This document shows, piece by piece, positions 47,431 through 49,342 of a stretch of 64,000 nucleotides of DNA (positions within the stretch are counted from its first letter, which is position 1; every line of letters begins with the position of its first letter). A model generated the notes under the pieces. That model saw only the letters and a list, made by a program, of their open reading frames with translations. It was not told the origin of the DNA and ran no database searches. The stretch covers positions 15,748,001-15,812,000 of the forward strand of contig OZ024743.1 of NCBI GenBank assembly GCA_964016885.1. Direction: 5' to 3'. Position numbers and translations under genes: made by a program. The DNA is from Eledone cirrhosa (lineage: Eukaryota).

Positions 47431-48435
47431 ATTATGAAGAGAGAAGAAACATTAGATATAATTAATATTAAGATATAGCATACCCAAATTCATTCTTTAC
47501 TCCTCGACTACTTAGTTTCGTGTAATATTATGCAAAAACACTACATCACAGAGATATAGAATTTTTGTGAGGTCTGCCGACTTATCAAGATGATACCTCT
47601 TTAAGAGTTTCAAAACACGTCCGTAGGACGCGAGATAGAATCCCGAAAGGCGGAGGGGGAGTCAATCCCGTGATACAGCGGTCAAGAAACAGAGCTAAGC
47701 CTCTTATAACCATGAAAAGAATACCACAGAGGCGGAGGGGGTACTTATATCAAAGCCGTAGAAGAGGTGGCTAAGGTGGCGAGAAGTATAAGTAATTATA
47801 GCTTTCTAGCAGTCACTACACTTCAATGGTTACTCTACCAAAGGGAGTTATAAACAATATATAGAAACACACAGACTATGCGGACACATACATATACATG
47901 AATATATCCACATATATCCTTGAATTAGTGGTGCCCACCTCAACCGATGTTGCTCTATGAATAACTGGGACAAAATAATCCGAATGGATTAGATTGATTC
48001 AGTATCAGAGCTATATAATACATTATAAAGAGAGAAGAAACATTAGATATAATTAATAATAAGATATACCATACCCAAATTCATTCTTTACTCCTCGACT
48101 ACTTAGTTTCGTGTCATATTATGCAAAAACACTACATCACAGAGATATAGAATTGTTGTGAGGTCTGCCGACTTATCAAGAGAGTACCTCATTAAGAGTT
48201 TCAAAACACGTCCGTAGGACGCGAGATAGAATCCCGAAAGGCGGAGGAGGAGTCAAGCACGTGATACAGCGGTCAAGAAACAGAGCTAAGCCTCTTATAA
48301 CAATGAAAAAAATACCACGGAGGCGGAGGGAGTACTTATAACAAAGCCGTTGAAGAGGTGGCTAAGCTGGCGAGAAGTATGAGTAATGATAGCTTTCCAG
48401 CAGTCACTACACTTCAATGGTATCTCTACCAAAGG
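47431..48435 (-). mobile_element. About 1.7 tandem copies of a 591-nt non-coding HHR monomer
   Basis: AGAGAGAAGAAACATTAGATATA at 47438 and 48029. Confidence 0.88.
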
Positions 48436-48463
48436 GACGTGTTTTGAAACTCTTAATGAGGTA

Positions 48464-49342
48464 TCCTATAAATGGACACTGCCTGACACCCAACATAGTC
48501 TATAGGTGCACGGTTAAAACTGCTTCGAATACTATCTCCTATATCGGGTCTACCTCTATCCCTTTTAAGGTACGCTATAACGCGCACTCTTTTTCCTTCC
48601 GAGACCCTAACAACAGATGTTCGACATCTCTAGCTAGGCTCATTAAAAACCTTAAATTAACCAACATTGAACACTCACTGACATGGGATATCTTAATATT
48701 TTTAATGCTTGCACTATTTTTAATGCTTATATCATTTCTCCACACACAGACTATAACAATCATATAAAGAATTTGCCACCAGATCAACCAACCTAACACT
48801 CTTGTTTACCTACCTAAGTGCTTCTACTACACGTAACTCTCTGCCACACTATATAAACAAGACGCACGTGCTTGCCATACATATAACATTTGCACTATAT
48901 AACCGCTTATTTTCATGTTGTATTTTAGCCTGTATTTTTGATTGTATCTTTTAATATGAATGTAATCTCTAAGTGTGTACTGCCGCTCTAAATGCTGTAA
49001 TGAATGTTGACCCACAATATTTGCATATGTATCTGTATGTCTCTTGGGTGAAAAGGAGGTCATATAAGTGTTCATTCATTAATAAATTGCTCCGAAGAAA
49101 CCAAACCTCGGTTTCGAGGAAACAGTTGTAAGCATAAAAATGTTTTGAACAGTTCTTTGATTCTTATATTTCATATAACTGCTCTGTAAATCATCTGATG
49201 TTTTTACATTGGGCTACTTAACTTACTGGTAATAAGGTAGTAATATATTACTGCCTACCACTATTTAGGGTTTGTATAAAAAATATATATAACTGCAAAA
49301 GGTTTTTGTATTTACATAACCATAAATAGTATAATTAATACT
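48464..49342 (+). mobile_element. Penelope-like element 3' part: GIY-YIG, UTR and HHR (49089-49133)
   Basis: PINGHCLTPNIVYRCTV...SYIGSTSIPFKVRYNAH.FSF...STSLA...LTWDIL. Confidence 0.88.

Follow-up and report, generated by a model that had tools for sequence, protein, structure and literature searches.

A composite insertion was found in the 64-kb window of DNA analysed here, in which a non-coding repeat with a unit of 591 nt and predicted hammerhead ribozymes is fused, through a short inverted piece of itself, to the 3' part of a Penelope-like element (PLE). Its parts lie in the order 591-nt tandem (minus strand), inverted piece of the same unit, Penelope endonuclease fragment and 3' UTR, with TA tracts outside (Table 1). 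The origin that we favour, with slightly better than even confidence, is one integration event with two different RNAs, whose two cDNAs would have been joined by a fold-back bridge.

Anatomy of the composite locus

The window, eukaryotic DNA whose element content points to an animal host, is AT-rich (GC 25-46%) and contains 81 merged (TA)n tracts with many retroelement fragments in between; no tRNA was found within its 64 kb. The composite locus is part of an insertion stack. Directly to its left lies a further 5'-truncated Hydra-type PLE fragment (46811-47410, minus strand, hammerhead core at 46947), and to its right a LINE-like RT C-terminal frame fragment between TA tracts (49495-50133), the sole Pfam match of which was DUF6451. 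The tract at 47416-47432 is a target remnant separating the composite insertion from the neighbouring PLE fragment. The TA-tract map showed no TA tract inside 47433-49341, in agreement with an earlier sequence-only reading of this DNA, which had noted none between the parts.

Table 1. Features of the composite locus and its boundaries
Feature	Position	Strand	Basis or detail
Short (TA)n tract, left boundary	47416-47432		TA-tract map and sequence
1.70 head-to-tail units of the 591-nt non-coding repeat	47431-48437	minus	Self-alignment; 1007 nt, 38% GC
Predicted hammerhead, copy 1	47498-47596	minus	Core 47588-47582; predicted cut 47506/47505; mismatches: one in helix I, two in helix II
Predicted hammerhead, copy 2, type I	48089-48187	minus	U3-A8 core 48179-48173; predicted cut after GUC, 48097/48096
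Fold-back bridge, sense copy of the 591-nt unit	48435-48467 (probable end)	plus	Pairs with 48213-48181; loop 221 nt
One filler base, junction with the Penelope arm	48468		Loose read ends before 48469
5'-truncated GIY-YIG endonuclease fragment, assigned to a Hydra-clade Penelope-like element	48469-48695	plus	75 codons from 48471
4-nt filler at the second discontinuity	48696-48699		Loose ends behind 48695 (X5) and before 48700 (X1, X4, X5)
Penelope 3' UTR / pLTR part	48700-49342	plus	94% match to each arm of the palindrome at 34318-35280
Hammerhead-like motif of the Penelope UTR	49088-49134	plus	Predicted cut 49130/49131; core kept in 4 window copies
(TA)n tract, right boundary	49342-49494		TA-tract map

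The left arm was defined by aligning 47420-47846 with 48012-48437, which gave 93.9% identity (24 differences in 416 ungapped columns) at a spacing of 591, and its length confirms the roughly 1.7 minus-strand monomers that had been proposed. The tandem reaches the left TA tract with its RNA 3' end, which falls on an AT-rich point internal to the unit.

Behind the tandem, the segment 48435-48463 repeats 48185-48213 in inverted form without a mismatch (29/29). In 200 Markov resamples of 47846-49342, the longest match of this exact inverted kind averaged 11.8 nt and never exceeded 18 nt. The trinucleotide GGA at 48435-48437 is common to the tandem and the inverted piece and represents a 3-nt microhomology. 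The inverted piece probably reaches 48467, to judge from its last 4 nt, which agree with the third copy of the family, at 44 kb, but with neither unit 1 nor unit 2. An inversion of about 28 nt had been read at 48436-48463; the inversion itself is borne out, and its start moves to 48435 and its end probably to 48467. At the junction at 48468, no microhomology was found with the usual upstream sequence of the Penelope family as given by the loose ends before 48469. The bridge ends 84 nt from the hammerhead cut site, so it does not end at a natural RNA end, and RNA ligation at the ribozyme cut was ruled out as the origin of the junction on the same distance.

The endonuclease fragment and the UTR had been taken to follow directly. 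The Penelope part does begin at 48469, after the one filler base, but its continuity did not hold, a break at 48695/48700 having been overlooked. The C-terminus of the endonuclease is missing there, with more than 144 nt lost, and protein matches stop at 48695. The two sides of the break likely belong to the same family.

The two families joined at the locus

The 591-nt unit contains no stop-free stretch longer than 61 codons and gave no match to 147 PLE proteins of relatives, so that a coding (pLTR-with-ORF) origin is without support. No sequence is shared between the unit and the UTR of the right-arm Penelope family. In a contig of the public run X4, position 48436 is joined back to 47847, which indicates that multimers of the unit exist elsewhere; unit-to-unit joints were seen in X4 and X1. 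The family is abundant in the compared public runs (4 of the 11 listed) and is also present in a second organism (B). Its third copy in the window (44273-44756, 484 nt, 80% identical) lies between two TA tracts, has a different 3' end and carries the best-formed hammerhead of the family copies. Folding of the whole unit against shuffles gave a z-score of -3.24 on the ribozyme (minus) strand and -1.58 on the other strand.

The hammerhead of copy 2 has a long helix II (about 60 nt), GAAA and a near-palindromic helix III of the dimer type, the palindrome being perfect in the 44-kb copy, and the conserved core, GAAA and GUC are found in all three copies of the family. With a structure-aware scan, 13 distinct hammerhead cores were recovered from the window, whereas three resamples yielded 0, 2 and 0. 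Of the family copies, those at 48179-48097 and 44437-44516 (the third) satisfied the scan, and the one at 47588 was rejected on its helix I mismatch. Copy 1 is probably damaged, and the two consecutive complete hammerheads used in bioRxiv 10.64898/2026.07.22.740005 as a criterion for active retrozymes were not found, as this copy fails the helix I test. Across the helices, 89% of cells were paired against 30-58% in slid controls, and no compensatory change was seen among the three sequences. Minimum-energy folds of the short ribozyme stretches did not beat shuffles (z -0.56 to -0.95), and only the 44-kb copy folded into helices I and II. Among simpler searches, the plain CUGANGA pattern missed the hammerhead of the unit, a two-mismatch scan was too noisy, and an Rfam search gave no match to either hammerhead of the locus. 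A 20-nt ribozyme pattern found no viral matches, and its two metagenome matches, in bacterial-looking DNA, are due to chance. Ribozyme activity and RNA circularity of the unit are thus predictions from its sequence. The U3-A8 variant, palindromic helix III and dimer action are known for PLE hammerheads (PMC4209133), and a second family at 60 kb carries the same U3-A8 core.

A different hammerhead had been reported in the Penelope UTR. The motif is present at 49092-49134, but it has C at core position 4, lacks the G10.1-C11.1 closing of helix II and was rejected by the structure-aware scan, and with no Rfam match either, it is best described as hammerhead-like only.

In its predicted features, the 591-nt unit works like a non-LTR retrozyme and fits the wider definition of these elements, not the narrow one. 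It resembles the metazoan non-LTR retrozymes described in PMC7229834 and bioRxiv 10.64898/2026.07.22.740005 in being a non-coding tandem with one type I hammerhead per unit, GC below 45%, dispersed copies and co-occurrence with PLEs. It differs from those in the available text of PMC7229834 in its length (591 nt versus 170-400 nt) and in its U3-A8, long-helix-II, dimer-type ribozyme versus their canonical core, and its length falls within the 51-972 nt range given in the bioRxiv text. Unlike in known retrozymes, the tandem at the composite comprises only 1.7 units and is physically fused to a PLE. The unit may have its origin in the pLTR of a different PLE family.

The right arm is assigned to the Hydra clade, for which a CxCX5C linker, a CxxC-E-N-CxH end and (TA)n targeting have been described (PMC8557442). 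The frame from 48465 gave a weak Pfam GIY-YIG match (E 0.092, below the curated cut-off). The fragment matched 910 library proteins at E<=0.001, the long ones of which are RT+EN Penelope-like proteins by motif, with the GIY-YIG match C-terminal to the RT motif. No Pfam family was found for four of five relatives, and protein-cluster names were uninformative. The CxCX5C linker is present with exact spacing in 71 of the 150 best relatives, with near spacing in 16 and not at all in 63; it is absent from the truncated locus and was read by eye in the 30-nt loose-end consensus of X4 before 48469, where the first Cys codon is incomplete. The 75-aa fragment lacks a CCHH motif and has one Cys between the GIY-like and YIG motifs. 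Among the long relatives checked, the RT motif and the CxxC-E-N-CxH C-terminus were found in 10/10, DKT in 6/10 and RWK in 3/10, and the locus is without these regions through truncation and deletion. The arm ends in (TA)n, as expected of a Hydra-clade target, and its UTR ends at the same base as the long arm of the copy at 34.3 kb (34318-35280). The window contains three other Hydra-type endonuclease remnants, at 20.4, 32.7-33.3 and 47.1-47.4 kb.

Upstream of 48469, 6593 reads of X9 and two contigs of X4 continue with the Penelope Cys linker and not with the 591-nt unit; X9 is a RAD library whose reads probably begin at one restriction site, so that 6593 is no copy number. The unit is therefore not in the consensus of this Penelope family; its presence there was one of the two findings that the sequence-only reading had named as fatal to a fusion. 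That the unit is a regular part of the family, its 5' region or pLTR, would suit the PLE type of its hammerhead and the derivation of retrozymes from pLTRs stated in bioRxiv 10.64898/2026.07.22.740005. It is largely refuted by the continuing reads and contigs, by the missing similarity to the UTR and to the proteins of the 147 relatives and by the unit-to-unit joints in X4 and X1, and we give it hardly any weight.

Origin of the composite

From the observed anatomy, orientation, microhomology, family boundaries and recurrence of the layout, we infer one event with the following order of steps. A TA-targeting Penelope-like protein would have cut a (TA)n tract. The left end would have primed cDNA on a multimeric (or circular) 591-nt hammerhead RNA, 1.7 units of which would have been copied, and the right end would have primed cDNA on a Hydra-clade Penelope RNA, with synthesis halting within the endonuclease gene. 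The left cDNA would have folded back with its 3' end on the 3-nt match 221 nt behind it and copied about 30 nt of itself, either by the RT or by a host end-joining polymerase. Once released, the left end would have met the Penelope cDNA at its free 3' end and been joined to it with one extra base. The product would be an ordinary head-to-head Penelope insertion with a second arm from another family.

Each arm looks target-primed, since in each the RNA 3' end lies outermost, at a TA tract. The reading as one event is supported by the Penelope end, which matches the end of another copy, and by the lack of a TA residue at the junction. A twin-priming-like origin is favoured since the arms lie in opposite orientation, as in the LINE-1 chimeras of PMC13174262, where this arrangement is the sign of twin priming and arms in the same orientation point to template switching or RNA ligation. 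The purified PLE protein of PMC11167929 cut and extended both strands, started internally on RNA and was modelled as a dimer. The two arms carry similar loads of private substitutions (6/317 and 9/317 for the tandem units, 12/377 for the Penelope UTR). This also supports one event, but two insertions made shortly after one another would give the same result. The single insertion proposed in the sequence-only reading is accordingly retained as the most likely origin; the template switching proposed with it is not, beyond the piece of about 30 nt, since the 1007-nt tandem lies in opposite orientation.

The layout recurs in the window. Twelve head-to-head inversions with loops of 1-481 nt were hand-picked from inverted-repeat lists, leaving out the inverted repeats outside TA-bounded segments (e.g. 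1423-2082, 9711-10133, 21676-21959, 30623-31077) and the cluster at 39.4-40.6 kb. In nine of the 12 fold-backs, a TA tract lies at or close to the end of one arm, and in the other three (17 kb, 33.9 kb and the composite locus) a copy of 77, 34 or 29-33 nt is followed by a foreign element ending in TA. Fold-backs are the rule in the window, with a foreign continuation in 3/12 of the hand-picked cases, and this supports the reading as one event, although the selection by hand weakens it. The two further composites, which were read without family consensus sequences, join families other than those at the composite locus, and their short copies likewise match the opposite arm of the same insertion. 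At 16866-19286, an antisense UTR related to the Hydra-type Penelope family of the right arm, with a hammerhead-like motif at 16961, is followed by a 77-nt fold-back (17852-17928 onto 17370-17294, 76/77) and then by an unrelated AT-rich element that contains a canonical minimal hammerhead (19117-19148) and ends in TA; a local score of 72 between the continuations is due to AT-rich runs, and blastn with dust found no similarity. At 33735-34140, the third candidate, a 34-nt fold-back (31/34) with a 6-nt loop is directly followed by the family of 36882-37072 (90%) and 61561-61620.

Other head-to-head insertions were also seen. The one at 34318-35280 consists of the same Penelope UTR as the right arm of the composite, with a 14-nt loop and arms that differ at 17/377. 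In that at 19743-21345, a Hydra-type endonuclease C-terminus lies in the 388-nt loop, each arm holds sequence absent from the other, and the loopless arm extends 133 nt beyond the end of the other; this overrun indicates that PLE arms can be primed independently, and the sequence private to each arm suggests that the two are independently primed cDNAs.

Several observations speak against one event or its details. (TA)n targets hide duplications, and the filler break at 48695/48700 shows that deletions occur at the locus. The match of the last 4 nt of the bridge to the 44-kb copy is a point against fold-back copying, which would require either two subsequent changes in unit 2 or a different template. 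It is unlikely, in our estimate, that two separate insertions in the same TA tract were joined by a subsequent deletion. In this explanation, the Penelope copy entered after a normal head-to-head retrozyme insertion. The TA spacer and most of the right arm of that insertion would have been lost, either by target deletion at the 5' join as Penelope integrated or in later end-joining repair. The stack of PLE fragment, composite and LINE fragment at the site would fit this, as would the second deletion-like break with its 4-nt filler inside the Penelope arm, and a bridge that was the stump of an independently made arm would explain the 44-kb-type end. Long palindromes are unstable. The three stumps, however, are all short (33/752, 34/201 and 77/428 nt of the possible arm; combined p 0.039 under uniform breakpoints, a soft value since palindrome instability favours short stumps too), and at least two of the three short-stump loci are clearly head-to-head. 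Host end joining is known to leave short inverted snap-back fillers, but their reach in the available text of PMC5728401 is about 30 nt from the break, against the 221-nt loop at the composite.

An improbable third course is a switch from RNA to RNA, in which the RT, working from the right on Penelope RNA, jumps to the non-coding RNA, copies about 30 nt and pairs through the 3 nt with the left-primed tandem cDNA. The bridge runs in the direction of the Penelope arm and ends in what is likely the ancestral sequence of the family, as would be expected of a copy from fresh RNA; one filler base without microhomology would suit an RT jump, and template jumps have been proposed for PLEs (PMC3846280). 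Such a jump would have to land inside an RNA, 84 nt from the ribozyme cut and without microhomology, and a second, left-primed cDNA would still be required, whereas folding back accounts for the short copies at the other two composites without a third molecule.

Among the matches listed from public reads (4 of the 11 listed runs), no record bridging 48436-48469 was found. This counts against one event, although it is not evidence of absence, and it would also fit an assembly or library chimera of the fold-back type, the best run containing only 0.45 of the sampled words. We regard such an artefact as very improbable: the insertion is bounded on either side by the end of an element at a TA tract, the arms of other palindromes in the window have diverged from each other (e.g. 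17/377 and 12/255), unlike those of artefacts, and the last bases of the bridge differ from unit 2.

The origin of tandem and inverted PLE insertion structures is an open question in PMC8557442 and PMC11167929. Extending the favoured two-RNA event beyond this locus, we tentatively propose that Penelope-type integration uses two RNAs, one per end of the cut, as would suit a dimeric enzyme, that the second RNA often comes from another family, and that mixed composites are a regular product; this is possible rather than probable. Mixed-family composites separate such a two-RNA model from self-priming on one RNA.

Known systems and other elements of the window

Head-to-head PLE insertions, retrozymes as dependants of PLEs and twin-priming chimeras are already known. 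A search of the openly accessible literature, main texts only, found no retrozyme-PLE composite insertion that combines them. The composite resembles the head-to-head PLE insertions of PMC8557442 and PMC3846280 in its head-to-head arms, 5' truncation, microsatellite target, fold-back or palindromic centre and Hydra-typical (TA)n; unlike those described in the available text, its arms come from unrelated families, one of them non-coding and multimeric, and the inverted copy is only about 30 nt long. With the LINE-1 twin-priming chimeras of PMC13174262, the partners of which are antisense 5S rRNA, tRNA and mRNA, it shares two RNAs in opposite orientation within one insertion; it differs from the chimeras described there in its Penelope-type enzyme, (TA)n target, lack of a usable target duplication, retroelement-RNA partner and fold-back bridge. 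The bridge is also like the products of snap-back synthesis-dependent microhomology-mediated end joining (PMC5728401), in which a 3-nt repeat primes a short inverted copy that is afterwards joined with the opposite end, and is unlike them, as far as that text describes them, in the distance of its template (221 nt away versus a reach of about 30 nt) and in a Penelope side without new microhomology.

The mobiliser of animal retrozymes is treated as an open question in PMC7229834, with PLEs as strong candidates, and the retrozyme-PLE link in bioRxiv 10.64898/2026.07.22.740005 draws on similarity to pLTRs and on their joint occurrence. PLEs have been described to capture foreign sequence in trans (PMC3846280). 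The sequence-only reading had taken the locus to link a parasite to its helper. This did not stand as more than suggestive, given the lack of similarity between unit and UTR, the other Hydra-type families in the window and the other families paired in the other composites; in our judgement it is doubtful that the right-arm Penelope family is the usual helper of the 591-nt unit. Even a single event would mean no more than that a TA-targeting enzyme had both RNAs as its substrates at the time. If the proposal of regular two-RNA integration is correct, the locus would be the first direct trace of the joint integration of a retrozyme and a Hydra-clade PLE, and composites would form a genome-wide fossil record of retrozymes and PLEs with a common enzyme. 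Counts of the partners in such composites could identify the helper for every retrozyme family, for which one fossil locus is insufficient.

Several further elements were observed in the window. The head-to-head insertion at 59878-60612 has a 320-nt tandem unit with a U3-A8 hammerhead, and its right arm carries 36 extra nt, like the 'tail' of PLEs. A young 470-nt tandem unit at 57829-59342, with a canonical-core hammerhead (weak Rfam HH9 matches), is inserted head-to-head with arms differing at 4/637, and this retrozyme-like family may be active. Three near-identical units of about 460 nt with a hammerhead-like core occur at 39381-40642 in alternating orientation, with short TA tracts between them, and a pyrimidine-rich 624-nt unit is present in 2.2 TA-flanked tandem copies (97%) at 42658-44022, where a CUGAUGA motif is oddly placed. 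Broken RT and GIY-YIG-like frames at 54899-56638 (minus strand, hammerhead core at 55074) belong to a PLE of another clade. The 426-nt element at 28989-29414, with 42-nt terminal inverted repeats between TA tracts, is presumably mariner-like, judging by its appearance. A LINE reverse transcriptase frame of 648 codons (Pfam RVT_1, E 4.6e-30) was found at 6360-8306.
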